From the NCBI GenBank assembly GCA_951812855.1, contig OX638337.1, positions 1,620,001 through 1,652,000 on the forward strand: a stretch of DNA of 32,000 nt, read 5' to 3'. Within the stretch, counting starts at the first letter, position 1, and every line of letters starts with the position of its first letter. Positions 6,001 through 28,997 of this stretch are shown here, piece after piece. Below the pieces are notes generated by a model. It did not search any database. It was not told the DNA's origin and was given only the letters and a program-made list of their open reading frames with translations. Position numbers and translations under genes: made by a program. This DNA is from an uncultured Lentisphaeria bacterium. GTDB taxonomy: Bacteria; Verrucomicrobiota; Lentisphaeria; JABSQK01; JAJFLO01.

Positions 6001-6978
6001 GTGCGTAGTACCGAAAATGGTAAAGTTGCCGTTAAGGCTTCCGGAGACGTATTGACATTTACCGGCAGCGTTTTGGTTGGAGCCAAAGATAATACAGGTA
6101 CAGCTCTAAAAATTGGGAATGAATCCGGATCACTATCAATTGATTCAAAAGGTGCGGATGTTGAACTCGCTACTAACGCTGTAGCCGATTTTATTGATAC
6201 CCAATATAATCGTCTTGACGTAAATGAGAGTGGAAAAGTAGAGGCCGTAACTGATGGAGCCTGGATATTCAGAGCGGCACTCTATGGTGGTTTAGACGGA
6301 CTGGTACCAATTAACCGATCTGCTGAAGGAAGTAAAGAAGAAAATTTAGCGAAGGATCTGATTATTATCAGAAATGTAAATGGAGCCGGGCGTGTACCTG
6401 CGGGATCTGCGGGTTCATTTAATGTTGATGGAACTGGATCATTTGATGCGGGAACAGATGCAATTTACATTTTTAACAGATTGTCAGCATTAGCAGACGA
6501 TTCTGGAACAGTTAATACAGATACTAGTACTATTCCATCGCAGAACCGGGACGGTTTCACACCCGACCAAATTATTGCAATTAATAATGCTATTGATGCG
6601 TTGAATGCTGAAGCTGAGGATACATTAAACCCGGGTATTTTTGCAGGCACAGATCTTAAAAGATTGATAGATACTCAGAAACCCTTGTTAATTGGATTTA
6701 ACGAACATGTGAGAATCGCCCTCACGTCAAGTAATACTGACGAAGGGAAACTTTTGAATTCAACAAATATTCAAACGTTGATTGCCGACGAAGAATTTAT
6801 CAAAATAACAGGTAATCCAGAAACTACTACCTACACGTATGCAGTAGGTTCTGGTGCCAGAGTTATTACGGTAACTCCTTCAGGAGCCTGGTCAAAAGAT
6901 ACGAAGGTCCGTGTTAAGGAAACATTAGTGCAGGATGTTGAGGGTCTTGCCGGAACACGTACAGTTATTTTCGAATAG
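1..6978 (+). CDS. Giant modular cell-surface / adhesin-like protein, 5'-truncated by the window edge
   Basis: Frame 1 is open from nt 1, with no stop before the GTG at 34 used by the ORF track, so the N-terminus is off-window. Stop TAG is at 6976-6978 and is followed by a strong terminator. Motifs in the translation: 'NNILGNGTGIHL' beta-helix-like repeats; 4x 'LNDAPTFVKGADITINQD...FTITVQK' cadherin-like units. A LamG-like segment follows: 'LTLTAWIKT...GKWVHLAGVYD...LYVDG...NFDGLIGGVNVF'. Then 3x 'EPTIGFVISKVETADVDSNGKLDALLITFSAAIDD...'. Cohesin-like and dockerin-like segments and an SbsA-Ig-like tail lie near the C-terminus. Confidence 0.9.
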   Translation, partial: EGAIGADGTFKVNADADGDGVTSDETYNIANHAVDGAAIIVDSAAARIANNNILGNGTGIHLLDIATTVNDKAVATTLDYNRIGTIGAPAKTAAETDIDGPSGDGLGVGFHIAHETVKADAGNNLGDLTGAITDGDSVVYNSSDLRVEGSNIYDIATQLLNVRGNVNANALAISDDKTDAAGFQVPLAAAITNADSADDVDLGTTTVSSVITDISVAVTAVNSSDTDPNKEPPASVKIATEISNSDAGIDTSKDAGKTEEENRVALQEKVNAILDGIKQELAKLNKDNTVTKFVFELKLPPADVDGVHFNAFNVPGAEFIIKKATGVVVLTVGTPALTVGDGVTLTLQGTVVTDSDGNVVNSIQVKNTDKTEVGDSPTILVESGGTLKIRNVTLGESTIFDQAVIKIEGTGVLDLGTAADLGNNTLTVNPRVNETDGTITNSAYPHGLFILHNGSVDVSALGNIWIDNTAGANTDISKDNAKIQALIDTSGGSAKVTVLPALNDAPTFVKGADITINQDVGPQTEFAWATDISAGAIGKLESFTLTAVSITVPTADGSGTESGAAETFFKDAPTVDKDTGDLKYTVADGITGTATYTIHATDNGPGTGGNINVSAKQSFTITVQKLNDAPTFVKGADITISQDAGPQTESAWATNISAGVVGELASFTLTAVSITVPTVDGSGTESATEETFFKVAPTVDVTSGDLKYTVADGKTGTAKYTIYAADNGPGTGGNINVSAKQSFTITVQKLNDAPTFVKGADITINQDAGPQTEFAWATNISAGVVGELESFTLAPVSIAVPTADGSDTEYTTEATFFKVAPTVDKTTGDLKYTVADGKTGTAKYTIQATDDGPGTGGNINISAKQSFTITVQKLNDAPTFVKGADITINQDAGPQTEFAWATNISAGVVGELASFTLAPVSIAVPTADGSGTESATEETFFKVAPTVDKTTGNLKYTVADGKTGTAKYTIHATDDGPGTGGNINVSAKQSFTITVQKGVIVAKTPDKSVPTGDLAHFPLNEATWNGTAGEVKDSTGLGADGTAKNGAKTVAVEDNEALTRAGSFDISDHFIAIDTEGKRSIITNADGDLTLTAWIKTTNRSGLRHIAGKSAFRKDGAFALILSSGRAIFYVNGSRRFLRAKDNVATGKWVHLAGVYDASEGTLNLYVDGKSVENDNKGAVTLSLDNAVPFTIGGDDDASSQVRNFDGLIGGVNVFSTAQSPENIAAIASNTASESESEPTIGFVISKVETADVDSNGKLDALLITFSAAIDDATFTQALISGGNLVIKNGTTDLKASLTVDPANNTLDGDVNNNRYVIKINEDAGLNTGDTPTVAYTKPATGGITSSAAAGSVSLPSVTMTATDSAKPAPEPTEPTEPEPTIGFVISKVETADVDSNGKLDALLITFSAAIDDATFTQALISGGNLVIKNGTTDLKASLTVDPANNTLDGDVNNNRYVIKINEDAGLNTGDTPTVAYTKPATGGITSSAAAGSVSLPSVTMTATDSAKPAPEPTEPAEPAEPAEPAEPAEPAEPAEPAEPEPTIGFVISEVETADVDSNGKLDALLITFSAAIDDATFTQTLISGGNLVIKNGTTDLKASLTVDPANNTLDGDVNNNRYVIKINEDAGLNTGDTPTVAYTKPATGGITSSAAAGSVSLPSVTMTATDSAKPVVLSASADYNTSIRKLSITLSERVAATSTDLSKLHLNDVAGTDIVTLTGATNSSTGKVNVINLKLMLTQLRNVLKISSHPEATGTAGAVVLDSDSGAFTDASASANKSAAKDSVKVTEVLDSTSPKVTKVSGKAGKFGPGQVITVTAQFNEVVDVTGPVTLGLTLSSGNVVANYLSGGGTDTLTFTYKTAADRSDYTSAGDLVEFTPANTIGGTGTVADVSGNELADADKSLGTGVAKLSTNAEIRILNTSITIAVPGTREGQKFTATVSSNTLGLQALNFTIICENSQIGELSNFELLSKGGATLSSDAALEGVTSWKSGTTTVYFVSVRSTENGKVAVKASGDVLTFTGSVLVGAKDNTGTALKIGNESGSLSIDSKGADVELATNAVADFIDTQYNRLDVNESGKVEAVTDGAWIFRAALYGGLDGLVPINRSAEGSKEENLAKDLIIIRNVNGAGRVPAGSAGSFNVDGTGSFDAGTDAIYIFNRLSALADDSGTVNTDTSTIPSQNRDGFTPDQIIAINNAIDALNAEAEDTLNPGIFAGTDLKRLIDTQKPLLIGFNEHVRIALTSSNTDEGKLLNSTNIQTLIADEEFIKITGNPETTTYTYAVGSGARVITVTPSGAWSKDTKVRVKETLVQDVEGLAGTRTVIFE
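1504..2991 (+). repeat. Four in-frame tandem repeats of 372 bp (124 aa) encoding cadherin-like 'NDAPTF' domains
   Basis: 'ttaaatgatgctccgacatttgttaaaggtgctga' recurs at 1504, 1876, 2248 and 2620, an exact 372-nt period. The antisense shadow ORFs in the ORF track repeat with the same period. Copies are clearly diverged: a by-eye alignment of copies 1 and 2 shows roughly 30 mismatches. Confidence 0.95.
3712..5014 (+). repeat. Three near-identical tandem modules (423, 486 and about 394 bp) encoding a 141-aa domain plus Pro/Glu/Thr/Ala linker
   Basis: 'gagccgactatagggtttgttatttca' starts at 3712, 4135 and 4621. Copies 1 and 2 looked identical at every base I compared. Copy 3 differs at 4648 (K->E) and 4741 (A->T). 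Identity ends at about 5014, where the linker is replaced by 'gttgtgctcagtgca'. Confidence 0.95.
4543..4620 (+). repeat. Perfect 9-bp microsatellite (GAGCCTGCT)x8 plus a partial unit, encoding an (EPA)n linker
   Basis: Read directly: gagcctgct repeated from 4543 to 4614, then gagcct at 4615-4620. The equivalent junction after copy 1 (4114-4134) has only (gagcctact)x2. Confidence 0.97.
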
Positions 6979-7017
6979 ATACATATAACGGGTTATAACT
7001 GTTAGGAACAAAAGATC

Positions 7018-7058
7018 AAAGCCGCAGTCTTATTTTGACTGCGGCTTTTTTTTATTTT
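7018..7058 (+). terminator. Rho-independent terminator of the giant surface-protein gene
   Basis: Stem gccgcagtc (7021-7029) pairs with gactgcggc (7037-7045) around a 7-nt loop. It is extended by aaa/ttt and followed by T8-A-T4, 40 nt after the stop codon. Confidence 0.9.
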
Positions 7059-7505
7059 GTAAAATTTTGATTGATATGCAACAGGGATTAAGGATTATTT
7101 TCCGAAGTATATTTAAAATGACTTTCAAAAAAATTTAAGTTGACAGTTTACACACTAATTATTGTATGCCCGGGATTTAATCACAATCGGTTATATCACA
7201 CTGTTTATTGCTATACTAATGGTATTATTTAACCGTACATTTGATTCTGTTGAACACCAATATTGTACAGACGCATCATACTGAAAGGGGATTTGACTGT
7301 AATATTTTTTATATGATAAAAAGATCGAAAATAGTTATTGTTTTCAATTAGCGTATGCCCGACACCTAATATAACATATTACATAAAAGGATTCGATGAA
7401 GAGTATCATGTACTTTGCTTTAATGATTGGGAGTTTCTTTTACTCATTCCCAGTATAGATATGAATATACTCTGCCTGATAAAATGTATATTTTAAGAAT
7501 TCGAG

Positions 7506-7532
7506 TGCAAAACTTCCTCAGGGAGTTTTGCA
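7506..7532 (+). promoter_or_regulatory. Strong hairpin in the long spacer upstream of the 248-aa cohesin-like gene (possible attenuator or terminator-like element)
   Basis: tgcaaaact (7506-7514) pairs with agttttgca (7524-7532). Inner pairs are t-g, c-g and c-g, leaving a 3-nt loop, and the hairpin is followed by the U-rich 'atttattatttaat'. Function is not established. Confidence 0.35.
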
Positions 7533-7917
7533 ATTTATTATTTAATCCTCCTTCAGGGCTTGTCTGCTGTGGTGGATTTTATTCCCGGTCTGTTGTCGTG
7601 TTTGTTGAACACTCTCATACCGTTCAGCGGTACGAGCTGTCTTACTGCACTCGGTTGCGGGGTAGGGGGACGTTAATTAAATGTTATTCCAATTCCATAT
7701 TTTTAATATGTTAATATTATGTTATCTCATTACTAATTGTCATCTATCAAAATGTGTAACACAAATATCTGTGTAGTATTGAACTGACAATGAGGTATTT
7801 GGAAAAAAGAATATTCCCGGCGAACTTGATGTGTTTTTCAATATAAAATTTGATCTTTGGTTTTTATCGGGATTAAATCAGTTATACTGAACATCTTAAA
7901 ATTAAAAATATCAGAAT

Positions 7918-12876: not shown

Positions 12877-14325
12877 ATGTTGAAAGTCATCTCTAATATT
12901 ATAGTCCTGTCACTGAGTATAACTCTGTTTTCAGGGTGTAGAACGAAAAGTACACTGAAGGATGTACAAACAGAAACAGGGATATCATTTCCAGATAAAT
13001 GGATATCATTAGCTCACGATCAAGTTGAGGCACATCCTATTGGGTGGCTTAGTGATATTAATGATTCGTATTTAACCGCACTGGTAACAGAAGCAATTGA
13101 AAAGAACCGGGATATAAAAGCAGCGGCATCACGAGTCAATTCAGCGATAGCTCAGGCAAAAATTGAAGGTGCGTCTCTTAAACCGAATTTAAGTCTTGAG
13201 TCAGGTGCATCCAAAACGAAACGTACATCTTCCAGCGGATTTGCACTGTCAAACGTCCGATCAAATAACTATAATTTCGGCTTATTTACTAATTGGGAAA
13301 TTGATTTATGGGGTCGGCTGCGTAATCAGGTTGATGCATCATATAATGATCTCAATGCGGCAACAATGGACAAGAAATCAGTGTCTCTGTCTGTCGCGGG
13401 TAATGTTGCTAAATCCTGGTACGGACTCATCGAATCAAAATTACAGGTTAATCTTTCCCGAAAAACTGTAAAGAGTTTTGAAAATTCGCTGATTAGCATT
13501 GAACAGGGATTTCGAACCGGAATCAACAGTGCCCTTGATGTACGTTTAGCCCGGGCAAATATCTTTGTGGCCAAGAATCGATTATATGAAGCACTGAGAG
13601 CTTTTCAAAACCAAAAACGGACGTTGGAAATTTTATTGGGCAGATACCCAAGAGGTGAACTTGAAACGCGCAACTCCTTCCCGGAATTGAAACGACGCAT
13701 CCCGGTCGGACTGCCAATGGATCTCTTAATGCGGCGACCAGACCTCATTGCAGGTCACCAGCGTTTAGCGGCAAATGATTATCGGTGGCAGGATAAAAAA
13801 CGCAACTGGCTGCCGTCTCTTGCACTAACAGGAAATGGCGGGACATCAAGCAGTAAGTTCAAAAATCTGATGAATTCAAATTTTGGAGTCTGGAACATCG
13901 CAGCTGTTATCATGCAACCCTTATATAACAGTGGTCGCCTTTCAGCAGAACGTGCCATGGCATTGGCAAACAAAGATAAATCCCTGGCTGATTTTTCTCA
14001 GCTGATTCTTCGTGCTCTTAAAGAAGTTGAAATTGGGATCACGAACGAAGATTTGTTATTCAATCAGGAAATCGCATTGAAATCAGCTAAAGATGAATCC
14101 GTCATTGCTGAGACAATAGCCCGGGAACGATATCAAAAGGGACTTGAGAATATAACCACACTTCTTGAAGCCCGGCGACGTTCATTCGAAGCCCGGAACA
14201 ATTTTTTAACTGTAAAGAGCAGGCGAATTCAAAATCGTATTGATCTTTATTTAGCACTGGGGGGAGATTTTGGAATAGAGGGAAAGCAGGATAGAAACAA
14301 AAAATCACCCACAGAAATTAAATAG
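12877..14325 (+). CDS. Efflux outer-membrane factor lipoprotein (NodT/OprM family)
   Basis: 482 aa with lipobox 'LFSGC' at residues 17-21. Two TolC-like repeat halves with 'WEIDLWGRLRN' and 'RRPDLIAGHQRLAA...LPSLALTGNGG', which are classic OMF motifs. Confidence 0.88.
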   Translation: MLKVISNIIVLSLSITLFSGCRTKSTLKDVQTETGISFPDKWISLAHDQVEAHPIGWLSDINDSYLTALVTEAIEKNRDIKAAASRVNSAIAQAKIEGASLKPNLSLESGASKTKRTSSSGFALSNVRSNNYNFGLFTNWEIDLWGRLRNQVDASYNDLNAATMDKKSVSLSVAGNVAKSWYGLIESKLQVNLSRKTVKSFENSLISIEQGFRTGINSALDVRLARANIFVAKNRLYEALRAFQNQKRTLEILLGRYPRGELETRNSFPELKRRIPVGLPMDLLMRRPDLIAGHQRLAANDYRWQDKKRNWLPSLALTGNGGTSSSKFKNLMNSNFGVWNIAAVIMQPLYNSGRLSAERAMALANKDKSLADFSQLILRALKEVEIGITNEDLLFNQEIALKSAKDESVIAETIARERYQKGLENITTLLEARRRSFEARNNFLTVKSRRIQNRIDLYLALGGDFGIEGKQDRNKKSPTEIK

Positions 14326-14441
14326 TTATAACATAATACACAGTAAACAGTTAAGTTTTTTAATGCGTTTAGTTAAGAAAAAACAGGCACGAGTATTCTG
14401 TAATAAGAAATCAAACTATATTCGAAAACTGGATAAAAAAT

Positions 14442-15806
14442 ATGAAAACGAAATTACGATTTTTCCTGCCACTGTTTATTGTGGCAATATGTGCTGGAAT
14501 CGCCTATCTGCTAATCAAAAATAAACCTGAGCAGGAGCGCCATAAATCCGATACAAAGACATTAGCAGTTGAAGCCATAAGAATTGAACGTCAGAATTAC
14601 CAAATTGTACTAAAATCTCGTGGCGTCGTAAAACCACGTACTGAAACAACACTTGTTTCCGAAATATCAGGTCGAATTATTAAAATATCTGATAATTTTA
14701 TGGAAGGTGAATTTTTCAATGAGGGAGAGGCTTTAGTTCAAATCGATGATCGCACATACAAGGCTGAAGTAAAAATTGCAAATTCAGAATTGATGTCTTC
14801 ACGTTCAGCATTTGAACAGGAAAGAGTCAATGTTACGAATTTTGAGACTCAAATTATTTCAGCAGAATCAACACTGGAACGGGCTATATTAGCGTATAAA
14901 GAAGAAGTTGCCAGGGGGAAACAGGCACTTAACGATTGGGAACGGCTACATCCTGATAGACGCCCCGACGAGCTGGTATTGCGCAGGCCACAATTAGCAA
15001 CTGCCAAAGCCGCAGTTGCTGCAGCAGAAGCGTTATTGGAACAGAGCCAACGCAATGCGGAATTAGGTCCCTATCAAGTTGCTGCTGCTAAAGCAAAGGT
15101 CGAAGCAGCCGAAGCAAGCCTGGAAAAAAGGAAATTAGATTTAGAACGTACCAAAATTATTGCTCCATTTACAGGCATCGTTCTCACTAAAAATGTAGAC
15201 ACAGGTCAATACATAAGCCAAAATACTCCTCTCGCAAACATTTATGCAGTCGACTATGTTGAAATTAGGTTGCCGCTATCGAACCAACAACTTGGATATA
15301 TTAATCTGCCCGAACACCATCGGAATACCGGAAATACCCCTGTATCATCATTTCCGTCGGTAATTTTAACCTCCTCTCTCGGTCTAAACGTGTATAAATG
15401 GAATGGAAAGTTGATTCGATCAGAAGGCACATTTGATCCTGCGAGCAGGCAACTTTTTGTAATCGCCAAGGTTGATAATCCCTATGACCGCAGCAAATAT
15501 GATCGACCGCCATTAAAAATTGGTCAATTTGTGGAAGCAGAAATTGATGGGATCATTGCCCGGGATGTCATAGTTGTTCCAGGAACATCCGTACGTACTG
15601 GAAATGAAGTACTGGTCATTATAGAAAACAACAAACTTCAGCGGCGTACCGTCAAATCATTTTGGTCAGATGAAGAAAATGTGATCATTTCCGAAGGGAT
15701 CTCCGAAGGTGAAATTTTGTGTATTACACCGCTGAATTTTGCTATTGATGGAATAACGGTGTCAGCAACTATAAAGGGGAACAGCATGAAAAACGGAGGA
15801 CAGTAA
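14442..15806 (+). CDS. Efflux periplasmic adaptor (membrane fusion protein, HlyD/RND-MFP family)
   Basis: 454 aa with N-terminal TM 'FFLPLFIVAICAGIAYLLI'. Lipoyl/hairpin pattern 'VSEISGRIIKI...GEALVQIDDRTYKAEV', a long Ala/Glu-rich coiled hairpin, then 'TKIIAPFTGIV' and a C-terminal beta-barrel-like segment. Confidence 0.88.
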   Translation: MKTKLRFFLPLFIVAICAGIAYLLIKNKPEQERHKSDTKTLAVEAIRIERQNYQIVLKSRGVVKPRTETTLVSEISGRIIKISDNFMEGEFFNEGEALVQIDDRTYKAEVKIANSELMSSRSAFEQERVNVTNFETQIISAESTLERAILAYKEEVARGKQALNDWERLHPDRRPDELVLRRPQLATAKAAVAAAEALLEQSQRNAELGPYQVAAAKAKVEAAEASLEKRKLDLERTKIIAPFTGIVLTKNVDTGQYISQNTPLANIYAVDYVEIRLPLSNQQLGYINLPEHHRNTGNTPVSSFPSVILTSSLGLNVYKWNGKLIRSEGTFDPASRQLFVIAKVDNPYDRSKYDRPPLKIGQFVEAEIDGIIARDVIVVPGTSVRTGNEVLVIIENNKLQRRTVKSFWSDEENVIISEGISEGEILCITPLNFAIDGITVSATIKGNSMKNGGQ

Positions 15807-16097: not shown

Positions 16098-16173
16098 TGG
16101 AGCCAAAGAGCGGATTTGAACCGCTGACCTATTCATTACGAGTGAATTGCTCTGCCAACTGAGCTACTTTGGC
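16098..16173 (-). tRNA. tRNA-Thr (anticodon CGU), 76 nt, CCA encoded
   Basis: The reverse complement folds by hand into a cloverleaf. Acceptor GCCAAAG/CTTTGGC; D arm GCTC-AGTTGGCA-GAGC; anticodon arm ATTCA-CTCGTAA-TGAAT. Variable loop AGGTC; T arm AGCGG-TTCAAAT-CCGCT; discriminator T; CCA. Confidence 0.93.
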
Positions 16174-17280: not shown

Positions 17281-17826
17281 GTGCTGAAAAAGTATCCAAT
17301 GACCACTCAATCGAATAATAGTAACAAAGAACGTTGGTATTGTGTGATGACCAAACCTCATGAAGAGAGACTTTCTCTCATGCACTTATCACGTCAGAAC
17401 TTTGATGTGTATTTACCTTATGTAAAATGTAAACGACTATATCGCAGAAAGTTGCAATGGGTGACTTCGCCGATGTTCCCACGATATCTCTTTGTAAATC
17501 TTCAGAATTTCGAATTTATGCCACAGATCAGATCAACACGGGGCGTCTCTTCATTAGTTTCATTTGGCAACAAACCTGCCCAAATCCCAACTGAAATTAT
17601 CACTGAGATTCGTTCACGCTGTAAACAAGATGTGTATACCGTGGATCAGCCTGATTTTGAGGAAGGTGACAGGGTTGAAATTATTACCGGCCCTTACCAG
17701 GGTATGAAAGGAATTTTTGACCGGAATTCATCAGCCGAAGAACGCGTTATTGTTTTATTAGAAATTATGTCGACTGTTGCTAATGTTGAAGTAGATCGAG
17801 AATTACTTGTCAAAGATAAAGATTAG
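17281..17826 (+). CDS. RfaH-like specialised NusG paralog (NGN + KOW transcription antiterminator)
   Basis: Matches my recollection of E. coli RfaH over the full length: 'WYCVMTKP...', 'SPMFPRYLFVNL', 'IRSTRGVSSLVSFGNKPAQIPTEII', and KOW-like 'GDRVEIITGPYQGMKGIF...ERVIVLLEIM'. Start is uncertain: GTG at 17281 or ATG at 17299. Confidence 0.85.
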   Translation: MLKKYPMTTQSNNSNKERWYCVMTKPHEERLSLMHLSRQNFDVYLPYVKCKRLYRRKLQWVTSPMFPRYLFVNLQNFEFMPQIRSTRGVSSLVSFGNKPAQIPTEIITEIRSRCKQDVYTVDQPDFEEGDRVEIITGPYQGMKGIFDRNSSAEERVIVLLEIMSTVANVEVDRELLVKDKD

Positions 17827-17832
17827 TGAATA

Positions 17833-17863
17833 TTATATCAAAAAAAGAATATTTTTGATATAA
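17833..17863. promoter_or_regulatory. Perfect 12-bp-arm palindrome (TTATATCAAAAA-N7-TTTTTGATATAA) between the RfaH-like gene and the coiled-coil gene
   Basis: Read directly: arms at 17833-17844 and 17852-17863 are exact reverse complements. It begins 7 nt after the stop codon. The stem is all A/T apart from one C-G pair and has no trailing U-tract, so it looks more like a candidate operator than a terminator. Confidence 0.3.
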
Positions 17864-17909
17864 AAATAGAATTTGACCTGAATTATTGAGTTATAAGGAG
17901 ACTTAACCC

Positions 17910-18683
17910 ATGACCTGCAAAATACAGTCTGACATCTACTGCTTCGGCTCATTATTAAAACTCGTTTTCCTTACGATGTTTTGTTTTGCTATTTCCGGAT
18001 TTTCCCAAACAAGAGAAGATATTGTTCGAATTTCTCAGCGAGCATCAAGTTCAAAAAAAGAGGTTGCCCGACGGGAAACGGCATTGGCAAATCTTAAAGA
18101 GAAACTGGAATTGGCAAATCAAAATGTAACAAAAATTGATCATGAACTCATATTGAAACGTACAGAAGTACCCCGTTCAGAGAAAGCCGTCAAAAAAGTT
18201 GAAAAGGATTTAGATATCGCTGAAAACAGAGTGCAAAAAATCTCTTCCCGCATTAAAAAATATGAGCAAAGACTGATAAAATCTCGGGAAAGGGCACAGC
18301 ATTTTTCGAATCTTGAGACGGAGTTAAGAAACCGATATATTAGAAACACTGTAAGGAAAACCCACAAGACTCAACTTGCACAGTTAAACCGGTATGAAGC
18401 AAGAGTGAAAAAATTAGAGAATAAGGTTAGAGCAGCACAGGCAGAAGTCACTGCCCGTACCATCATTGCAGGAAGAACGACGGGACAATGGAAACGTAAA
18501 TTTGCAAACTTTAAAGTGTATGAAGCTAAAGATAAAGCAGACTACTTATTAAATGAATTGAGAATCTATCAGGGAAAAGTATCTAAAGCACAGAACGACA
18601 TTGTCGGATTAAAAGCAAAATTAAAGAAAGCACAATCTGATTATCCTCAATATGAACAGGAGATGACTAAATCCGATAAATAG
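17910..18683 (+). CDS. Secreted Lys/Arg/Glu-rich coiled-coil protein of unknown function
   Basis: 257 aa with SD 'aaggaga' upstream. Signal-like 'LLKLVFLTMFCFAISGFSQ'. The rest is heptad-like charged sequence ('LANLKEKLELANQNVTKIDHEL', 'RVKKLENKVRAAQAEV'). I recognise no family. Confidence 0.7.
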   Translation: MTCKIQSDIYCFGSLLKLVFLTMFCFAISGFSQTREDIVRISQRASSSKKEVARRETALANLKEKLELANQNVTKIDHELILKRTEVPRSEKAVKKVEKDLDIAENRVQKISSRIKKYEQRLIKSRERAQHFSNLETELRNRYIRNTVRKTHKTQLAQLNRYEARVKKLENKVRAAQAEVTARTIIAGRTTGQWKRKFANFKVYEAKDKADYLLNELRIYQGKVSKAQNDIVGLKAKLKKAQSDYPQYEQEMTKSDK

Positions 18684-19127
18684 ATTCATTTTTCAGCCTC
18701 CTTACTTTAGCACTATAGATTCAACAAAAACCATTACTCCGATCAGAATGAGCGTGACGTCAAACCTCCCGAGTCTTGAAAAAAAGTTAACCACTATTGA
18801 TCATTATGACAGCCGTTGCCCGACTCCGGCCAATCAAAACCAAAGCCTATACGAGATTGAAGAATCTGTTTGCGGCTTTTCCTCAATTATTTTAATGTCA
18901 GTGCCAACCCTACAGCTTATCCGGCATCGGTAACAGGGATTTTATTCGACAGGAAATACAGACTTCTTTCCCGTCGTTTATCGAAATTACAGTCCATTAC
19001 AGGTTCTACTATTTTAAGACTGAAAAATCTGCCCGGTACCAATTGAACTCGAATTTCCCGTTTCAATCGGTATATTTATCATTCTTGACATTAGGAACAT
19101 TAATCATGATCAATCCATTAGACTGGC

Positions 19128-21077
19128 ATGAGGAATTCAAATCCAAAACCAAATCAACTTTCTTTAGTTTGTCTGATTATCGTAATATTACTCAATTTAT
19201 TGAACTGTTTTTTTACTCATAAATGGCCTGATATTTACATTCTAAAGAGCATATCGTTAAACCTGGCTTTACTGGCAGTATTTTCCGGGTTCGCTTTATC
19301 AGAATCATTTTTAGCTGGTCGTAAACAAGCCGAAGATGTCGACAATGACGTATTGAAACACAGCCTGAAGTCTTCGGATATTTTTAATCAGTCTTCACTG
19401 TCATCCCCCGCTGCCTCTTCTTATAAACTGGTGATCTGCTATATCATTCCGGCAATGACTGCTGCTGCCGGACTTGTATTTGCCGGCTTGAATATATATA
19501 GACTTAAATCCTGGGTCCACCATCTCACAACACCGCCTGTCAGCAGTTTTAATATATCTGGAATCTGTTTTTTTATGTTCTTTTTTTGCGTGCTATCCGG
19601 AAGTTATTACAACGGTCTTTCCGGCAATCAATCTCACCGTTGGCTGCGACCCATTGGTTCCTGGCTTCTATATTTAAGTTTTCTTTATGCTCTGACTATT
19701 GCTTCGGCCATCATCTTTCATATAAATTCTATTAATCCTGATTATACTATATTCCGGATAATCAGTATCCTAAACATAATCTTCGGCCTGGAACTTATCG
19801 GTAATGTTATCATTGAAATATATCGGCCAAAAATACAATCGTTAGAAGTCAATCCTATATTTGAAAGCCGTTTTCTGGCGTTTTTCACAGCACCGGATGG
19901 TTTTTTACAGAATATAGCAAATACCATTGATTATCAGTTTGGAATTAAGATATCAGACACTGAGTTAAATCATTTTATTAATCGACTTGTATTCCCCTAT
20001 GTTATACTGGTTTGCCTGAGTTTATATTTTTTTGAATGCATTGTCATCATTGATTCTGATGAGGTCGGTATCATTGAACGTGCGGGCAAACCCATTAAAG
20101 AATCACTGTTACCACCCGGAATGCATTTTAAATTTCCCCGCCCCATCGATCGACTGATAAATGTTCCGGTAAAAAAAATAAGAAAAGTCATCGTCGGTTT
20201 CAATGAACCCCATCAGGAAACCGAACAAGAAACGCACAAAATTCATAAGGCCGATAAAAACCATACTGATAAGGTAATCCTATGGAACAAACGTCATCAT
20301 CATTCCGAAGAAACGTTTTTAATTGCAAGTCGGCTCGATACAACCCGTTCTCATTTTAAGGATGCTTCCCGGGGCAATGGGTATCGACCCACATCGGCTA
20401 ATTTAATCGCAGCTGCCATTCCTGTATTTTATTCCGTTGATGAATCCAAGATTTTTGACTACGTCTATAACTACAAAAATCAGGCGGAATTAATCAAAAA
20501 AATTGCGTATCGCGAAATAATTTCCTACCTGGCATCAGCCGATTTTATCCACATCATAGGAAAAGGACGCATGGAGGCTAAATCTGATATTGAAATGAGA
20601 ATAAGAAACGCTTTTGCAACAATGAAGCCTGCTGTCGGTATAAAAATACATTACGTCGGCATTATGGAAATCCATCCACCTGTCACTGTGGCAGGTGCTT
20701 TTCAAAATCTTATTGGGGCGAAGGAATTATCAAATACCACTATACTTAAATCTCAAAAAAACGCGGTGATAACCAAACGTGATGCAGAAATTAAGAGCCA
20801 CGCATTAAAATCAGAAGCTGAGGGTTATTTATATGAAGAGCAGCAACTGGCAAAAGCTGAAGTACAGCGATTTAGAGAGCAACAAAAATTATTTCATATC
20901 TCTCCAAAATTATATAAGTTACGCACATTTTTAGATCTATTCGAAACTGAAACAGAAGATGTGAAGAAATACGTCATTACAAGTGATTCCAAAGAAACAT
21001 TCATCATAGATTCACAGCAAAGACTAAGCCCCGATTTATTAAACGACCTAAACGTTGAACCTGCTAAGGAGAAATAA
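19128..21077 (+). CDS. SPFH/band-7 (HflK/C-like) protein with a ~300-aa N-terminal polytopic membrane extension
   Basis: 649 aa. About six hydrophobic helices precede the SPFH anchor helix, for example 'LSLVCLIIVILLNLL', 'LVICYIIPAMTAAAGLVFAGL', 'ISGICFFMFFFCVLSG', 'IGSWLLYLSFLYALTIASAIIF' and 'IFRIISILNIIFGLELIGNVII'. The SPFH core follows: 'IVIIDSDEVGIIERAGKPIKESLLPPGMHFKFPRPIDRLINVP', with a C-terminal 'AEAEGY...AKAE' coiled region. Confidence 0.8.
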   Translation: MRNSNPKPNQLSLVCLIIVILLNLLNCFFTHKWPDIYILKSISLNLALLAVFSGFALSESFLAGRKQAEDVDNDVLKHSLKSSDIFNQSSLSSPAASSYKLVICYIIPAMTAAAGLVFAGLNIYRLKSWVHHLTTPPVSSFNISGICFFMFFFCVLSGSYYNGLSGNQSHRWLRPIGSWLLYLSFLYALTIASAIIFHINSINPDYTIFRIISILNIIFGLELIGNVIIEIYRPKIQSLEVNPIFESRFLAFFTAPDGFLQNIANTIDYQFGIKISDTELNHFINRLVFPYVILVCLSLYFFECIVIIDSDEVGIIERAGKPIKESLLPPGMHFKFPRPIDRLINVPVKKIRKVIVGFNEPHQETEQETHKIHKADKNHTDKVILWNKRHHHSEETFLIASRLDTTRSHFKDASRGNGYRPTSANLIAAAIPVFYSVDESKIFDYVYNYKNQAELIKKIAYREIISYLASADFIHIIGKGRMEAKSDIEMRIRNAFATMKPAVGIKIHYVGIMEIHPPVTVAGAFQNLIGAKELSNTTILKSQKNAVITKRDAEIKSHALKSEAEGYLYEEQQLAKAEVQRFREQQKLFHISPKLYKLRTFLDLFETETEDVKKYVITSDSKETFIIDSQQRLSPDLLNDLNVEPAKEK

Positions 21078-21078
21078 A

Positions 21079-22017
21079 ATGCCTGAAAATAAACCACTTG
21101 TTCGCTGGCCGATGTATCTGACAATCGCGATGATTCTGACTCTTTTATGCACAACGTTATTTACCTATAGCGTTCGCCACACCGACCATGCGGTGGTTCT
21201 TCGATTTGGCAAACCAATTATGGAAAAAAATACTGATCCGGGTCTCCATTTCAAATTACCGTTTGAGACCGTTTGGACTGCAGACAACCGAATTCAATGC
21301 TTCGAAGGTGAATCTGGAATCGTCGAAGAGATATTCACAAATGACGAGAAAAATATCACCGTAACTCTTTTCATGTGCTGGAAAATATCAGAAGATAAAC
21401 GCTTGACTTACCTGGAGCGTGTCGGAAACGGCCCGGCGGCTCGACTTGAATTGACGGCATTACTAAGAAGCTATAAGAACAGTGTTTTTGGAAAATATAA
21501 ATTTGAAGATTTAGTCAATATCGATCGAAACAAGATTAAGATTCGACAAATTGAGCGTGAAATCCTGGCATTGATCAGTATTGAAGCGTTAGACTTGTAT
21601 GGCATTGAAGTTTCAGATATCGGCGTAACTCATCTTGGCTTTCCTGAAACTGTAACGAAGAAAATATTTGCACGAATGGAAGCTGAACGAGAAACTGAAG
21701 TTCAAAAAATCTTATCCGAAGCCGATATAATTTCGGCAAAAATTAAAACTGATGCCGATAGAGAAAGCGTAAAACGACTGGCAAACGCCGAAGCTGAAGC
21801 AACCCGAATTCGAGCAAAAGGCGATGCTGAGGCGGCAAAACATTATGCCGTATTTGAGCAGAATCCTGAACTCGCGGCTTACCTTCGGAAATTAAATTCT
21901 CTCAAGCAAATATTAACAGAAAAAACGACCCTCATTTTAGATACAGAAACCGCTCCGTTTGATTTACTGAAAAATGACGGATTGGAGAGCAATATTCCAA
22001 CCAGAATCAGTCAATAA
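21079..22017 (+). CDS. SPFH/band-7 protein, HflC-like
   Basis: ATG at 21079 is preceded by SD aaggag (21066-71) and lies 1 nt after the upstream stop; the ORF track's TTG at 21055 is less likely. Single TM 'YLTIAMILTLLCTTLF', then 'AVVLRFGKPI...PGLHFKLPFETV' and 'ANAEAEATRIRAKGDAEAAKHYA'. Confidence 0.85.
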   Translation: MPENKPLVRWPMYLTIAMILTLLCTTLFTYSVRHTDHAVVLRFGKPIMEKNTDPGLHFKLPFETVWTADNRIQCFEGESGIVEEIFTNDEKNITVTLFMCWKISEDKRLTYLERVGNGPAARLELTALLRSYKNSVFGKYKFEDLVNIDRNKIKIRQIEREILALISIEALDLYGIEVSDIGVTHLGFPETVTKKIFARMEAERETEVQKILSEADIISAKIKTDADRESVKRLANAEAEATRIRAKGDAEAAKHYAVFEQNPELAAYLRKLNSLKQILTEKTTLILDTETAPFDLLKNDGLESNIPTRISQ

Positions 22018-22022
22018 CAGTT

Positions 22023-23072
22023 ATGGATAATAATAACCAGAATCAAGCATCCGGCATGAATACCAATGAGGGACAGAAAGCTCTTCTAAAAACGCTGCGT
22101 CCCGGATATATATTATTAAAAGCTGTAACTGTTATTCTGTTCATTTTATATCTGCTCTCCGGTTTATTCATCGTCAATCCAAATGAAAATGTGATTATAC
22201 TGCGATTCGGTAAGCTGGTCGGAGACAAAGGAAATCAGCACCTTATCACAAGTGGTCGTTGGCATTGGGCATGGCCTGAACCAGTTGATGAGATAATCCG
22301 GGTCCCGGCGAAACAGGTAAAAACTATTCACACGGACTGTTTTTGGTATAAACAGGATCAGATCACTGAAAAACTGGCAGTGAATCATACGAATTCAAAT
22401 CAACTTCGCCCCGGAATTGATGGATATTTATTAACCGGTGATCGCAATATAGTACATTCACAATGGTCAATTTCTTTTCTGATAACCCACCCGGTAAACT
22501 ATGCATTGAATTTTAAAAATCCCGATAATCTGATTCGTCAAGAATTACATCGGGCAATTCTCCAACAAACAGCACAGCACTCAATTCATGATTTCTTATA
22601 CGGAAATATCGAGACAATTCAAGAATCAGTCCAAAACCAGACTGTCAATCAACTGGCACGGCTGAACATTGGTGTAACCGTGATGAATATTTCCTGTGAA
22701 AAAAGAGAACCACCACGTTCAACAATCCCATATTTCAATAAAGTAAGCGAAGCAAATCAAGAGGAAAAACAAACTCTGGATTCAGCACAAAGATACGCTC
22801 AAAAGGTCACTATGCAGAGTCGAATAAAACAAGCCCGGATCATTGCCGAAGCAGAAGGATACCGAGAAAAATCTATCGCAACACTGGCAGCAGATAACGA
22901 GTACTTCTTAAAAATTTTAGAAGTCTATAATCAAGCACCGAAAACAGCACTTATTAACTTATATTCCCAGACCTTAGACGACGTATTCGCTAATGTCGAA
23001 TCAAACTATATTATTCATTCCGACAGCAAAAGTAAGGGACAGGAAGTTCGAATCAAGCTCGACGAAAACTAG
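22023..23072 (+). CDS. SPFH/band-7 protein, divergent HflK-like
   Basis: 349 aa, starting 5 nt after the upstream stop. TM 'ILLKAVTVILFILYLLSGLFIV', then 'NENVIILRFGKLVG...WHWAWPEPVDEIIRVP' and a C-terminal 'RIIAEAEGYREKSIA' segment. Confidence 0.78.
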   Translation: MDNNNQNQASGMNTNEGQKALLKTLRPGYILLKAVTVILFILYLLSGLFIVNPNENVIILRFGKLVGDKGNQHLITSGRWHWAWPEPVDEIIRVPAKQVKTIHTDCFWYKQDQITEKLAVNHTNSNQLRPGIDGYLLTGDRNIVHSQWSISFLITHPVNYALNFKNPDNLIRQELHRAILQQTAQHSIHDFLYGNIETIQESVQNQTVNQLARLNIGVTVMNISCEKREPPRSTIPYFNKVSEANQEEKQTLDSAQRYAQKVTMQSRIKQARIIAEAEGYREKSIATLAADNEYFLKILEVYNQAPKTALINLYSQTLDDVFANVESNYIIHSDSKSKGQEVRIKLDEN

Positions 23073-23131
23073 ATAAAAAAGAATAAACAGTTAAGAAAAA
23101 TTTATTTTTATTGTTCCCGGTCGAATTTTCT

Positions 23132-25105
23132 ATGCCGATCGGGAAAAATCAATTGACGATGGTATCAAAATCAGAAAATCAAATCAATATTCAGCATAAA
23201 GGCAATAAGGAAATGATAAACCTTCATATCGCAATGGCAGGCGGATCATTTTTACTCAGTGCAGCACTGTCAAAATATTATTTCTACAGCCATGAACCGA
23301 TAATAAGCACAATCAGTGCGATTATTGCCGTATCTGTATTATCACTGCCAATATTAACAAAGGCAATAAAAAATGTGATATCCGGCAGAATTCGTATGAA
23401 TGAACTCGTCGCACTGGCACTGCTGGCATCAGTCATTTTAGGCAAATTTTACGAAGCAGGAATAATTGCATTTGTTATGCTGATTGTCATAACACTGGAA
23501 AAGAAAACCGCTGCGGGGGCCAATGAGTCAATTGAAACGCTGATCAAATTAACACCGACAATCGTCCGTAAATTAGCTGATGAAACTGAAGTTGATATTC
23601 ATATTAACGAATTGTGTATTGATGATATTATTCGTATCCGCCCCGGTGAATATTTCCCGGCAGACGGGACCATTATAACAGGAACAAGTACAGTTAATCA
23701 GGCATCGATAACCGGAGAATCATTACCGATTGACAAAACAAAAAATTCTACTGTCTTTGCAGGTACTGGAAATTTAACAGGTTCAGTTGATGTAAGAGTT
23801 ACCCGGATCGGTCCGGACACAACGATGGGAAAAGTTAAAGAATTAATTCAGACAGCAGAGAAAACCCGCATACCAATCCATCGCATTACCGATGACTATG
23901 TCAATTATTATATTCCGTCGGTCATTATGTCAGCCGTAATCATCTGGTTTTTTTCACAAAACCCGATGCAGGTTGTTTATGTTTTAGTCATTGCCTGTCC
24001 ATGTGCACTGGTTGTTGCTGTTCCGTCCGCAATTTTGGCAGCAATAGCAGCATCGGCACGCATGGGTATCTTAATCAAAGATCCCGGTCTGCTGGAAGCA
24101 ATAGCAAAAACCAGGTCGATAATATTTGACAAAACTGGAACTCTCACGGAAGGAAGACTTAAGGTGGCAAATTTAAATCCCGGCGAGAGTGTTAACTTGA
24201 CAGAACTGTTAACAATTGCTGCAAGCACAGAATCGAAGAGTAATCACCCACTTGCAGATGCACTGCGAAGTTTGGCCAATGAAGCAAACATCCAAATACA
24301 AGACCCGGATCAGATGATTGAATATCCCGGACAAGGAATCAAAGCTGAATATAAAAACGAAAAATACTACGTCGGACGCAAATCCTGGTTTAACGAATTA
24401 AATTTGGACACAAGTAATATTATTAATAAAAATGACGCCGAAAACTTGAATATTAGCGTCGTTTACGTAGCGAGAAATAATGAGGTGCTCGGCTGGATCG
24501 GCTTCAGCGATACCCTGCGGACAGATGCTGAAGCATCAATAGATTTAATATCAAATATTGGCATTGAAGAATGTGCGATGGTGACCGGTGATAATCCTGC
24601 TGCTGCACGTTACATCGCACAGGAAGCCGGTATCGAAGAGATTAAATGTGAATGTTTACCTGAAACTAAGGCCCAATTCGTTGAAACGAAGAAAGCAACA
24701 TTCGGACCGGTTATGTTTATTGGAGATGGTATCAATGACGCACCGGCAATTGCAGCAAGTGATATTGGTGTTGCAATGGGAGCTGTTGGAAGTGATATTG
24801 CAATGAACAGTGCCTCGATTGCATTAATGAACAATCGCTTAATGAATATACCTGATTTGATTGAACTGTCTAGAAAAACGAAATCAATTATAAACGCAAA
24901 TTTACTCATTGGCGTCAGTATGATTGTCGGTGGTCTCATGTTTTTTATATTTGGCAGTCAGATACTCGATGATATAGCCGGCATATTCCGCCTTCAGCCA
25001 ACATTCTTCAAGTCACTTGCTGCTGCCGGCATTCATGTCATAGGAACCCTGTTGGTTTTATTCAACAGTGCCAGATTATTTAGATTCAGTAACTCAAAAA
25101 CCTGA
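23132..25105 (+). CDS. P1B-type (heavy-metal) P-type ATPase lacking an N-terminal metal-binding domain
   Basis: Motifs 'CPC' (VIACPCALVVAVPSA), 'DKTGTLT' (from nt 24128), 'TGD', 'GDGINDAPA'. There is no GMxCxxC/HMA segment upstream of the first TM helices. Start is uncertain: TTG 23111, ATG 23132, ATG 23159 and ATG 23213 are all in frame. Confidence 0.88.
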   Translation: MPIGKNQLTMVSKSENQINIQHKGNKEMINLHIAMAGGSFLLSAALSKYYFYSHEPIISTISAIIAVSVLSLPILTKAIKNVISGRIRMNELVALALLASVILGKFYEAGIIAFVMLIVITLEKKTAAGANESIETLIKLTPTIVRKLADETEVDIHINELCIDDIIRIRPGEYFPADGTIITGTSTVNQASITGESLPIDKTKNSTVFAGTGNLTGSVDVRVTRIGPDTTMGKVKELIQTAEKTRIPIHRITDDYVNYYIPSVIMSAVIIWFFSQNPMQVVYVLVIACPCALVVAVPSAILAAIAASARMGILIKDPGLLEAIAKTRSIIFDKTGTLTEGRLKVANLNPGESVNLTELLTIAASTESKSNHPLADALRSLANEANIQIQDPDQMIEYPGQGIKAEYKNEKYYVGRKSWFNELNLDTSNIINKNDAENLNISVVYVARNNEVLGWIGFSDTLRTDAEASIDLISNIGIEECAMVTGDNPAAARYIAQEAGIEEIKCECLPETKAQFVETKKATFGPVMFIGDGINDAPAIAASDIGVAMGAVGSDIAMNSASIALMNNRLMNIPDLIELSRKTKSIINANLLIGVSMIVGGLMFFIFGSQILDDIAGIFRLQPTFFKSLAAAGIHVIGTLLVLFNSARLFRFSNSKT

Positions 25106-27233: not shown

Positions 27234-27278
27234 TACTATTCTTCAAAATACTCTTGTATGAAAAGTTAATTGAGAAAC

Positions 27279-28997
27279 ATGGGGCTGATATTGTGGGGAA
27301 ACAATGTGATTGATGAAAATTATACCCGTATTGTATTCAGATTTAAACTATACCAGCTTCTTCAAACAGTAATTTCTCTGTTTATCTTTTCCAGCTCATA
27401 CCTGCGTGCGGAGAGCAATGAGTTTGTATTACCAACAATTACTATGGATAATATTGGTCATCTTTCTACGGCCGTGAACATCTATGTAAGTCAATTTCAC
27501 TTTATTGGAAATTCGGTTTTTCCCAATGATGAACTTGCTGAGATCACCAAAGCATATACCCGCCGAATTGTCAGCAGCGTTGAACTCGAACATGTCAGAC
27601 AAATCCTTTCCGACCATTTTATTAACCAGGGGTACGTTAATACCGTAATTACACTTCCAGATCAACCCGTTGTAGATGGTACGATTAAATTTCATATACG
27701 TATCGGTGGATTGGCACATGTTTTTGTTTCCGGAAATAAACGCCTGAAACCAGATCACATCATCAAACGCATAAAAAAAGGAATAGGTCCACAACTAAAT
27801 ATCAATCGGCTCCGGCAAAATCTGGAATTACTTCAATATGATCCAAATATAGAGAAAATTAATGCACAGTTGTTTAAACATAAGAATGTGGAAAGCTCAT
27901 TTCTTGATGTGATCATCTCTGAAAAATATCCACTGTCATTGAGTATGGAAATCAACAATTATCGTGCACCGACAATTGGAGCAGAAAGACTGAGGCTGCA
28001 TGCATCTCATTCAAATTTAACGGGAATAAGCGATACACTTGCACTGGAATATGGATTGACAGCCGGGGACATCGAAGATACGGATATATCAAATGTTGAC
28101 GATATTGATTTAACATATTCTTTCCCAATTACCGACAGCGATGCACTACTTTCACTGCGGTATAGTAAAAAGGACTCCTTGATTATAGAAAAACCGTTTC
28201 GGAAATTGGATATTGAAAGTGAATTAGAAAATTACAGTCTGACCTTATCGTATCCGTTAAAAAAATCACTGAATCAACACCTTATTCTCTCACTGATTCT
28301 GGAGCATCGACAGAATAAAACGATTATAAAATCTCTTGACCTTCCGTTATCCATCTTTACAACAGGCTCGGTTCACAGCAAAACAAAGTTAACCGTAATT
28401 CGTTTTGTGCAGGAATACCTTCATCAAACACTTAAAAGTCAAGTAATCGTTCGATCAACCATAAGTTTAGGGGTTGACGCATTTCACCCAACGAAAATAA
28501 AGGGGACAACGCGGGATGGACAATTTACCTCATGGCTGGGACAATATCAGTATATTCGACGCATCGGAAATTCAGCAAATCAATTTATCTTTCGATCAAA
28601 TTTTCAATGGACAGATGATGAATTGTTATCTTTGGAACAGTTTAGTGTCGGAGGTTACTCCAGCGTCAGAGGATATCGGGAAAATCAGCTCGTCAGGGAC
28701 AGGGCGTTTCTTTCATCAATTGAAATTCGATTGCCGATACTGTTTAATAAATCAGGTAAAGAAATTGTCCAAATTGCACCGTTCTATAATTTCGGCAGAG
28801 CAACGAATAACGGTTCTGATTTTTCAGAATTTAATGACATCTCAAGTATCGGTATTGGATTTTTGACAAATCCTCTTCGTAATCTGAAAATGGAATTATA
28901 TTGGGGTTATCCACTAAGAGATGTCGACACAAAGAATTCTGATCTGCAGGATTACGGAATTCACTTCAGCATACAACTCGGATTATTTGATAACTAG
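27279..28997 (+). CDS. Two-partner-secretion outer-membrane transporter (TpsB; ShlB/FhaC/HecB family)
   Basis: POTRA-like 'FHFIGNSVFPNDELAEITKAYTRRIVSSVELEHVRQILSDHFINQGYVNTVITLPDQPVVDGTIKFHIRIG'. C-terminal beta-barrel with 'SVGGYSSVRGYRENQLVRDRAF' and terminal 'GIHFSIQLGLF'. Start is ATG 27279 or TTG 27270. Confidence 0.82.
   Translation: MGLILWGNNVIDENYTRIVFRFKLYQLLQTVISLFIFSSSYLRAESNEFVLPTITMDNIGHLSTAVNIYVSQFHFIGNSVFPNDELAEITKAYTRRIVSSVELEHVRQILSDHFINQGYVNTVITLPDQPVVDGTIKFHIRIGGLAHVFVSGNKRLKPDHIIKRIKKGIGPQLNINRLRQNLELLQYDPNIEKINAQLFKHKNVESSFLDVIISEKYPLSLSMEINNYRAPTIGAERLRLHASHSNLTGISDTLALEYGLTAGDIEDTDISNVDDIDLTYSFPITDSDALLSLRYSKKDSLIIEKPFRKLDIESELENYSLTLSYPLKKSLNQHLILSLILEHRQNKTIIKSLDLPLSIFTTGSVHSKTKLTVIRFVQEYLHQTLKSQVIVRSTISLGVDAFHPTKIKGTTRDGQFTSWLGQYQYIRRIGNSANQFIFRSNFQWTDDELLSLEQFSVGGYSSVRGYRENQLVRDRAFLSSIEIRLPILFNKSGKEIVQIAPFYNFGRATNNGSDFSEFNDISSIGIGFLTNPLRNLKMELYWGYPLRDVDTKNSDLQDYGIHFSIQLGLFDN

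Follow-up and report, generated by a model that had tools for sequence, protein, structure and literature searches.

To our knowledge, proteins of the SPFH group, such as HflK/C, stomatin, prohibitin and flotillin, occur universally, and their specific clients beyond FtsH and the m-AAA proteases are mostly unknown. HflK and HflC are encoded by a two-gene hflK-hflC unit, often within the order hfq-hflX-hflK-hflC, and bind FtsH. Here we describe a locus in a 32,000-nucleotide (nt) stretch of DNA, hereafter the window, from an uncultured Lentisphaeria bacterium (assembly GCA_951812855.1, contig OX638337.1, positions 1,620,001 to 1,652,000 of the forward strand), in which three consecutive SPFH genes are followed by a gene for a P1B-type heavy-metal ATPase; coordinates below are those of the window unless another sequence is named. 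A preliminary description of this DNA presented the three SPFH genes as a triad and did not connect the ATPase with them. We find that the ATPase gene is the conserved fourth member of the cassette, and its product the likely client of the SPFH proteins.

The locus resembles the E. coli HflK/HflC-FtsH system (7vhq, 7wi3, 9cz2) in its Band_7 domains, N-terminal anchors, periplasmic SPFH1/2 domains and long coiled-coil helix, and in placing K-like and C-like paralogues side by side; HflK/HflC is also the top Foldseek match of its first protein. It differs in having three paralogue classes, a degenerate cation diffusion facilitator (CDF) domain on subunit 1, a P1B ATPase as partner, and no ftsH or hflX context. 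The NfeD-SPFH operons (QmcA-YbbJ, FloA-NfeD) likewise join an SPFH gene to a dedicated membrane partner; in contrast, neither the window ORFs scanned with Pfam nor the Pfam lists for the related loci examined include an NfeD domain, and the partner is a transporter. In humans, the stomatin cage encloses aquaporin-1 and urea transporter-B (UT-B) (PMC12407830; PDB 9zd2). An SPFH oligomeric cage with an enclosed membrane transport protein offers a functional analogy for the present cassette, although stomatin is a eukaryotic, cytoplasmic-side homo-oligomer whose client is neither linked nor fused to it genetically and is not a metal pump.

In the Pseudomonas aeruginosa hmtA locus (PA2439-PA2434), three SPFH genes (PaFlo5-7), whose annotations read HflK family, HflC and HflC family, are followed by the gene of the P1B ATPase HmtA (PMC4542158, PMC8531726, PMC11761036, PMC13086221). 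Zur binds the promoter of PA2439, the first gene of the locus (PMC8531726), and transcripts and proteins of the locus are increased under Zn depletion (PMC4542158 Table 2; PMC11761036). Overexpression of HmtA leads to more cellular Zn and Cu, and its status as an 'importer' is unconfirmed according to reviews (PMC10393844). A 2026 study reports a three-gene SPFH operon with a patchy distribution resembling that left by horizontal gene transfer, notes that P. aeruginosa also keeps a separate canonical hflKC pair, and, by term search, makes no mention of HmtA or P-type ATPases (PMC13086221). The papers on the hmtA locus propose no mechanism and mention no polytopic N-terminal domain (N-domain). 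That locus contains an additional gene, PA2436, whereas the window has no recognisable Zur box. From the gene order, and from a gammaproteobacterial (Klebsiella) plasmid cassette that has the same order and is homologous gene for gene to the window cassette, we infer that the latter is orthologous to PA2439-PA2435.

Three SPFH genes and a P1B ATPase gene

The genes and signals of the cassette are as follows.

19128-21077, plus strand: gene 1, 649 amino acids, stop codon TAA at 21075-21077; class-1 SPFH subunit, from the open reading frame (ORF) and reading of the sequence
21066-21071, plus strand: AAGGAG, the ribosome-binding site of gene 2, located within gene 1 close to its stop codon and 7 nt before the ATG
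21079-22017, plus strand: gene 2, 312 amino acids, ATG at 21079, TAA at 22015-22017; class-2, HflC-like, single-pass
22023-23072, plus strand: gene 3, 349 amino acids, starting with ATG; class-3, HflK-like, single-pass
23159-25105, plus strand: gene 4, 648 amino acids from ATG 23159, in an ORF that opens with TTG 23111; P1B heavy-metal P-type ATPase

The ORFs, the sequence and Pfam bear out the head-to-tail arrangement of three SPFH genes noted in the preliminary description, with gaps of 1 nt between genes 1 and 2 and 5 nt between genes 2 and 3, as well as the placing of the AAGGAG site within the end of gene 1. All three proteins match Band_7 above the gathering score (gene 1, residues 307-544, E 3.4e-12; gene 2, 1.3e-18; gene 3, 4.6e-15). 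By hydropathy, the product of gene 1 has an anchor in addition to six transmembrane segments, whereas those of genes 2 and 3 each cross the membrane once, the anchor lying immediately N-terminal to the SPFH domain in every case. Translational coupling, which had also been proposed, is plausible in the window, but the tight spacing is not universal among relatives; because the median gaps there are 36, 21 and 12 nt, coupling is not a rule of the family. Fusion of two genes by misassembly, raised earlier as a way in which gene 1 could have arisen, was ruled out by approximately 120 full-length homologues (620-800 amino acids) of the same architecture and by a confident AlphaFold2 model. The window sequence is also present on ENA metagenome contigs, one of them 1.94 Mb long.

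The ATPase gene begins 40-90 nt 3' of the triad, and no terminator-like site was found on the plus strand across 19128-25105. ATG 23159 is its likely start, given the length of the closest homologue. The protein contains the Pfam domains E1-E2_ATPase (PF00122) and HAD/Hydrolase (PF00702), scores 501.7 bits with TIGR01525 (cut-off 346.25), and carries DKTGT and ACPCAL (the CPC of M4), as well as a His of M6 that is conserved; it lacks an HMA domain at the N-terminus. Its nearest solved structures are CopA, sCoaT and ZntA. As for the transported metal, the P1B signatures of M5 and M6 are YN and MxxSS for Cu+ (P1B-1), and K and DxG for Zn2+ (P1B-2). The cassette ATPases match neither: in the 61 compared, M5 begins with a conserved QN, and M6 keeps H-x-x-[SG]-T...FNS.RL. 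The window ATPase falls under the cut-off of TIGR01511 (Cu) and over that of TIGR01512 (the Cd family).

The nearest NCBIfam models are HflK for genes 1 and 3 and HflC for gene 2, and one explanation of the locus is accordingly that its SPFH proteins are ordinary HflK/HflC paralogues caging an FtsH encoded elsewhere, the ATPase being a mere neighbour or an FtsH substrate. The fold of gene 1, which matches HflK/C of FtsH complexes, speaks for this explanation, as do the RefSeq names of plasmid-borne copies of the cassette, 'protease modulator HflK/HflC' (with 'P-type ATPase' for the fourth gene). However, all three proteins score under the equivalog cut-offs, namely gene 1 with TIGR01933 hflK (78.1 bits; cut-off 159.4), gene 2 with TIGR01932 hflC (124.2 bits; cut-off 134.4) and gene 3 with TIGR01933 (132.1 bits; cut-off 159.4), in agreement with the earlier view that these are not canonical HflK/HflC. 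There are three subunit classes instead of two; Pfam and NCBIfam scans of the window ORFs found neither ftsH nor nfeD, confirming the absence noted in the preliminary description, and neither the window nor the loci examined show synteny with ftsH, hfq or hflX. The linkage to a P1B ATPase, and the fusion of class-1 subunits to an ATPase or a CDF in sister cassettes, likewise stand against a cage for FtsH, which we regard as improbable. The RefSeq label is probably over-specific, a systematic mis-annotation.

Conservation of the four-gene order

A scan of genomes with the motif [LI][DN]YQFGFx[VI]S, located in the linker of gene 1, retrieved at least 594 species-level genomes, and we examined the best 80 motif loci, which derive mainly from Lentisphaerota/Victivallales, Verrucomicrobiota and Planctomycetota. 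Of 61 loci whose downstream sequence was long enough for the comparison, 57 had the order gene 1-gene 2-gene 3-ATPase. An order kept in this proportion of related loci is far beyond chance. Homologues of gene 1, at 63% and approximately 30% identity, lie in otherwise unrelated neighbourhoods, and downstream of every one come two Band_7 genes and then a gene for a P-type ATPase; overlaps of 4 nt between gene 3 and the ATPase gene are frequent among cassette loci. The same four genes are present in an alphaproteobacterial branch (P0010-type; 458 clusters at E < 1e-10), on Rhizobium plasmid replicons and on a conjugative Klebsiella aerogenes plasmid.

The proteins of the window find their best matches in the genes at the same positions of the proteobacterial cassettes (gene 2, E 1.8e-36), and the window ATPase is 33% identical to the proteobacterial cassette ATPase (E 2e-108). 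Class-specific hidden Markov models placed genes 1, 2 and 3 from all types of cassette in the class that corresponds to their position. These positional matches and class assignments indicate that the triad is made up of three ancient and separate SPFH lineages whose order is fixed, and that it is associated with one ATPase lineage. Thus the triad is co-conserved, a point on which the preliminary description had made its proposal depend, and we hold with high confidence that the four genes form a conserved functional module.

Several observations concern the make-up and mobility of individual cassettes. In a Victivallis metagenome-assembled genome (L051), positions 2-7833 of the locus, 5' of the main cassette, hold a second SPFH set composed of a truncated class-3-like ORF, a class-2 and a class-3 gene, and directly before the main cassette there is a gene for a second P-type ATPase, of 749 amino acids; two such cassettes may thus be present side by side in some genomes. 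A small conserved ORF of approximately 170 codons trails cassettes with a fused ATPase (L007, 10921-11436; L008, 11039-11551), and one of approximately 235 codons trails alphaproteobacterial cassettes (L091, 13949-14656; L092, 13985-14698), both of which have a Metallophos gene in front of them. In L007 and L091 the trailing ORF had no Pfam match; it is possible that such small ORFs are further components of the cassette. The Klebsiella aerogenes cassette (L094) occupies 67441-73167 of plasmid NZ_CP142847, of the MOBF/MPF_F conjugative type, with a DUF4198 gene upstream and a Tn3-family transposase gene approximately 2.4 kb past the ATPase gene; another copy (L093) is on NZ_CP117260 of Rhizobium tumorigenes. 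The plasmid location suggests that the cassette is mobile.

Fusions of transporters to the class-1 subunit

Outside its own family, the closest SPFH relatives of gene 1 are the proteins P0006, P0007 and P0009, to which P0008 adds another type of fusion. The first three, of approximately 1000 amino acids, join in frame a complete P1B ATPase, one extra transmembrane helix and a class-1 SPFH domain, and their ATPases share the CPC and the M6 His signature with the cassette ATPases. P0008, of 573 amino acids, is a CDF-SPFH fusion (Pfam Cation_efflux, E 2.4e-17). Each fusion is followed by a class-2 and then a class-3 SPFH gene. A metagenome scan with the ATPase/SPFH junction gave 367 relatives, and among the best 80 loci examined, ATPase and class-1 SPFH formed a single ORF (~985-1045 amino acids) in 78, the order fusion-gene 2-gene 3 being visible in 64 of those.

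Judged from these sequences, the polytopic partner of subunit 1 is interchangeable: it appears as a pseudo-CDF accompanied by a separate ATPase gene, as an intact CDF, or as the ATPase itself. By the classical gene-fusion argument, interchangeable fused partners speak for a physical association of transporter and cage subunit. On this sequence evidence, the fusions argue that the transporter is the client of the cage. We found no description of the polytopic N-domain, its CDF ancestry, or ATPase-SPFH or CDF-SPFH fusions in the searchable literature, including Hinderhofer 2009. Hence the proposal that the locus is an undescribed SPFH variant holds for the N-domain, its ancestry and the fusions, but not wholly for the gene arrangement, which had already been seen in the P. 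aeruginosa hmtA locus.

A probable degenerate CDF fold at the N-terminus of gene 1

From its N- to its C-terminus, the product of gene 1 has a six-helix pseudo-CDF, then a conserved linker on the cytoplasmic side, the anchor helix, and an HflK-like SPFH domain with coiled-coil on the periplasmic side; the coordinates are as follows.

19128-19823, plus strand: pseudo-CDF membrane domain, residues 1-232, six transmembrane helices, N-in/C-in
19824-19961, plus strand: cytoplasmic linker, residues 233-278, with the motifs YRP[RK], ESR, P256 and DYQFG[FI]xxS
19962-20033, plus strand: SPFH anchor transmembrane helix, residues 279-302, from hydropathy and AlphaFold2
20196-20279, plus strand: acidic, His-rich variable loop in the SPFH domain, residues 357-384, GFNEPHQETEQETHKIHKADKNHTDKVI, of low confidence in AlphaFold2

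The full-length AlphaFold2 model (pLDDT 87.1) places helices at residues 8-32, 37-79, 94-131, 141-164, 168-200 and 205-232, followed by a short two-helix cytoplasmic linker, the anchor (279-302) and the SPFH domain; the N-domain modelled alone reached pLDDT 84 and pTM 0.79. The estimate of about six helices before the anchor is thus upheld by hydropathy and by the model. Because of the positive-inside pattern and the number of helices, the N-terminus and the linker are predicted to be cytoplasmic and the SPFH domain periplasmic, as in HflK/C.

The preliminary description could not assign the N-domain to a family. Neither Pfam nor NCBIfam has a model over this part of the window protein; a profile of the N-domain found no significant match among PDB sequences, and the domain alone found none in a word index of 5.8 billion proteins, a result of the limited sensitivity of the index. 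An exhaustive HMMER search with a five-sequence profile of residues 1-305 returned 897 clusters at 50% identity, 479 of them at E < 1e-30, nearly all matches lying at the N-terminus of proteins of 620-800 amino acids. When the profile of this family was compared by hhalign with the CDF domain of P0008, the two aligned over 203 columns with TM1-TM6 colinear (Prob 94-95%, E 5.5e-8). Approximately 36 controls, comprising the reversed and shuffled target, membrane segments of P-type ATPases and 31 unrelated polytopic ORFs, all gave Prob ≤1.4%. Among 28 family members, six had N-domains that by themselves matched Pfam Cation_efflux (PF01545; best E 1.3e-7), and in a Foldseek search of the PDB the only matches with prob ≥0.6 were ZnT1, ZnT7, ZnT4, ZnT3, YiiP and SLC30A10 (0.63-0.95). 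The domain is therefore assignable after all, to a known family, although its fusion to SPFH proteins is undescribed in the literature searched. A derivation from the membrane domain of a P-type ATPase was rejected (hhalign Prob ≤0.9%). Pfam Caveolin gave weak matches with seven of the 28 N-domains (best E 0.008), which we assume to be noise from hydrophobic composition.

Three observations count against CDF ancestry. The Foldseek likeness is weak on its own (TM-score ~0.35-0.44, E ≥0.47), Pfam does not detect Cation_efflux in the protein of the window, and an hhalign comparison of the alphaproteobacterial N-domain profile with CDF was not significant, so that the link runs through the profile of the Planctomycetes-Verrucomicrobia-Chlamydiae (PVC) type. 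Between the PVC and alphaproteobacterial types, the N-domains do show homology by hhalign (Prob 95.9%, E 6e-9).

Like CDFs (YiiP, ZnT; PF01545), the domain is a six-helix, N-in/C-in bundle colinear with TM1-TM6; it differs from them in lacking the Asp/His pairs of transport site A (D/HxxxD in TM2 and HxxxD in TM5), and in that the C-terminal domain is replaced by the linker, the anchor helix and the SPFH domain. Where CDFs have their tetrahedral site, the window protein carries N45, L49, W179 and L183, and across 119 homologues these columns are not D or H but mostly P/L/A, G/A, W/Y/F and N/S/G, respectively; a vestigial 'E.WH' is left in only 13 of the 119 sequences. The cytoplasmic metal-binding and dimerisation domain of CDFs is absent, just ~45 residues (233-278) separating helix 6 from the anchor. 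The 90%-identity cluster representative, P0001, differs from the window protein within the N-domain, for example by D71Y, V75I and G166R; position 166 is Gly in the window and Arg in the family consensus 'GxSR'.

It could be argued that such a domain has remained active as a secondary transporter or ion path, for instance as a cation/proton pathway through E222, which would put two transporters under one cage. In favour of this, the domain keeps the CDF fold, E222 (helix 6) and E69 are nearly invariant (117 and 113 of the 119 homologues, respectively), and the CDF of the P0008 sister cassette has intact HxxxD motifs. Set against this are the loss of the tetrahedral site from the window protein and its homologues and the missing cytoplasmic C-terminal domain, as well as the distribution of conservation in gene 1: in the 119-sequence alignment, the most conserved motifs sit in the cytoplasmic linker and not in the helices. 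We consider an active transporter unlikely. Given the controlled hhalign result, the Cation_efflux matches, the Foldseek hits and the loss of the site residues, the N-domain is probably a pseudo-CDF, derived from CDFs and non-transporting at the canonical site, and we conclude that this transporter fold has been kept for a structural or interaction role.

The SPFH half of gene 1

Comparison of SPFH folds by predicted structure covers gene 1. Its C-terminal half matched the cage protomers of HflK/C, stomatin, erlin and prohibitin in Foldseek (7vhq_E, E 1.5e-12), and the matches of the model to protomers of 7vhq, 9cz2 and 7wi3 (E 1e-12 to 1e-6) include the long coiled-coil helix. Across the family, the variable loop is enriched in acidic residues (D+E 21%, against 12% overall) and in His (4.3% against 1.6%), and DDGHGH is present in several of 25 loop sequences compared. 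This composition agrees weakly with a metal-related periplasmic role.

The upstream region and the wider window

The leader between gene 1 and the preceding ORF spans 444 nt (18684-19127). It contains the following candidate.

19037-19072, strand not assigned: inverted repeat TACCAATTGAA-N14-TTCAATCGGTA, upstream of gene 1; a candidate operator, without conservation support

When the regions preceding gene 1 in 77 loci were searched crudely for k-mers and inverted repeats, no shared operator or Zur-box-like motif emerged. No riboswitch or known RNA was detected in the leader, and the sole Rfam match of the window is a tRNA outside it (16101-16173, minus strand). Upstream of the leader, 17281-18683 encodes an RfaH/UpxY-like antiterminator (TIGR01955, 140.7 bits, just under the cut-off) and a 257-amino-acid coiled-coil protein whose N-terminal segment is hydrophobic; the cassette of the relative at 63% identity (L002) likewise comes after a gene of the NusG family and an ORF of similar size (249 codons) that has no annotation.

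Farther away, an OEP outer-membrane efflux gene adjoins a HlyD-type membrane-fusion gene (12877-15806), with no inner-membrane pump gene adjacent. An ORF of 2314 codons with Laminin_G_3 (34-6978) and a ShlB/FhaC-type two-partner-secretion transporter gene (27270-28997) appear unrelated to the cassette. An anti-phage defence system was rejected, there being no PADLOC matches.

Discussion

We favour, with moderate confidence, the interpretation that the SPFH proteins of the cassette form a cage around the co-encoded metal pump and not around FtsH, where co-assembly of the subunits, contact with the ATPase and an effect on transport are all inferred. This interpretation is based on the gene order, the positional orthology, the fusions, the CPC and M6 His common to cassette and fused ATPases, the CDF-derived N-domain, the HflK/C protomer fold and the periplasmic topology, together with the precedent of stomatin and its enclosed transporters and the P. 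aeruginosa SPFH/hmtA locus under Zur. The three SPFH proteins would co-assemble into a hetero-oligomeric dome in the style of HflK/C on the periplasmic face of the inner membrane, with the P1B metal pump rather than FtsH as its client. The pseudo-CDF of subunit 1, tied to the anchor by the conserved linker, would act as a membrane-embedded adaptor for the ATPase, which may be recruited to or held within the membrane patch bounded by the cage, or at its rim. The HflC-like product of gene 2 would alternate with HflK-like positions filled either by gene 1, the adaptor, or by the plain gene 3, and the existence of three paralogues would be explained by two kinds of HflK-like subunit sharing these positions. 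The likely outcome would be control of the stability, lipid surroundings or activity of the pump, or a confined periplasmic space for the release or uptake of metal.

Some evidence weighs against a cage dedicated to the pump. In three rumen Victivallales loci (L042, L046, L061) gene 1 stands alone, followed in L042 by a DEAD-box helicase gene, and in L059 the triad lacks the ATPase gene, a Ser/Thr protein kinase gene taking its place. The likeness of the window cassette to PA2439-PA2435 is one of published gene order and annotations. According to the accessible portions of the 2026 study, deletion of all three SPFH genes in P. aeruginosa produced mild phenotypes only, the assays given there being growth in rich medium, virulence factors, motility, biofilm and oxidative stress, with no metal limitation among them (PMC13086221). 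Such subtle phenotypes, the relatives with gene 1 alone or without the ATPase, and the pleiotropy common among SPFH proteins would all suit a general microdomain or stress scaffold that is merely co-regulated with the ATPase under metal stress and, in the split-gene form, has no specific association with it. A general scaffold is at odds with the strict gene order across phyla and the 4-nt overlaps of gene 3 and the ATPase gene in many loci, with the recurrent in-frame ATPase-SPFH fusions, and with a polytopic module that is always on subunit 1; we judge it to have a low probability.

A more specific form of the cage around the pump is that an HflK/C-like dome of three subunit classes encloses the P1B ATPase and forms a confined periplasmic chamber lined by the acidic, His-rich loops, into which metal is released or from which it is captured. 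We put this forward as a speculation that may well be wrong. If it were true, metal transfer across the inner membrane would be a compartmentalised process, which could account for the anomalous 'importer' behaviour of HmtA, and metal pumps would be an unrecognised, widespread class of SPFH clients, recruited via a fossil CDF or, in sister cassettes, fused directly.

The cassette provides a genetically defined candidate for an SPFH client, a P1B metal pump, through three layers of evidence: an operon order held over at least four phyla, recurrent in-frame fusions of pump and SPFH protein, and a fossil transporter domain as the putative adaptor. Because the cassette occurs in hundreds of genomes, on conjugative plasmids of Enterobacteriaceae and, by gene order, in P. 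aeruginosa, the effect of an SPFH cage on a transporter should be testable in tractable organisms.

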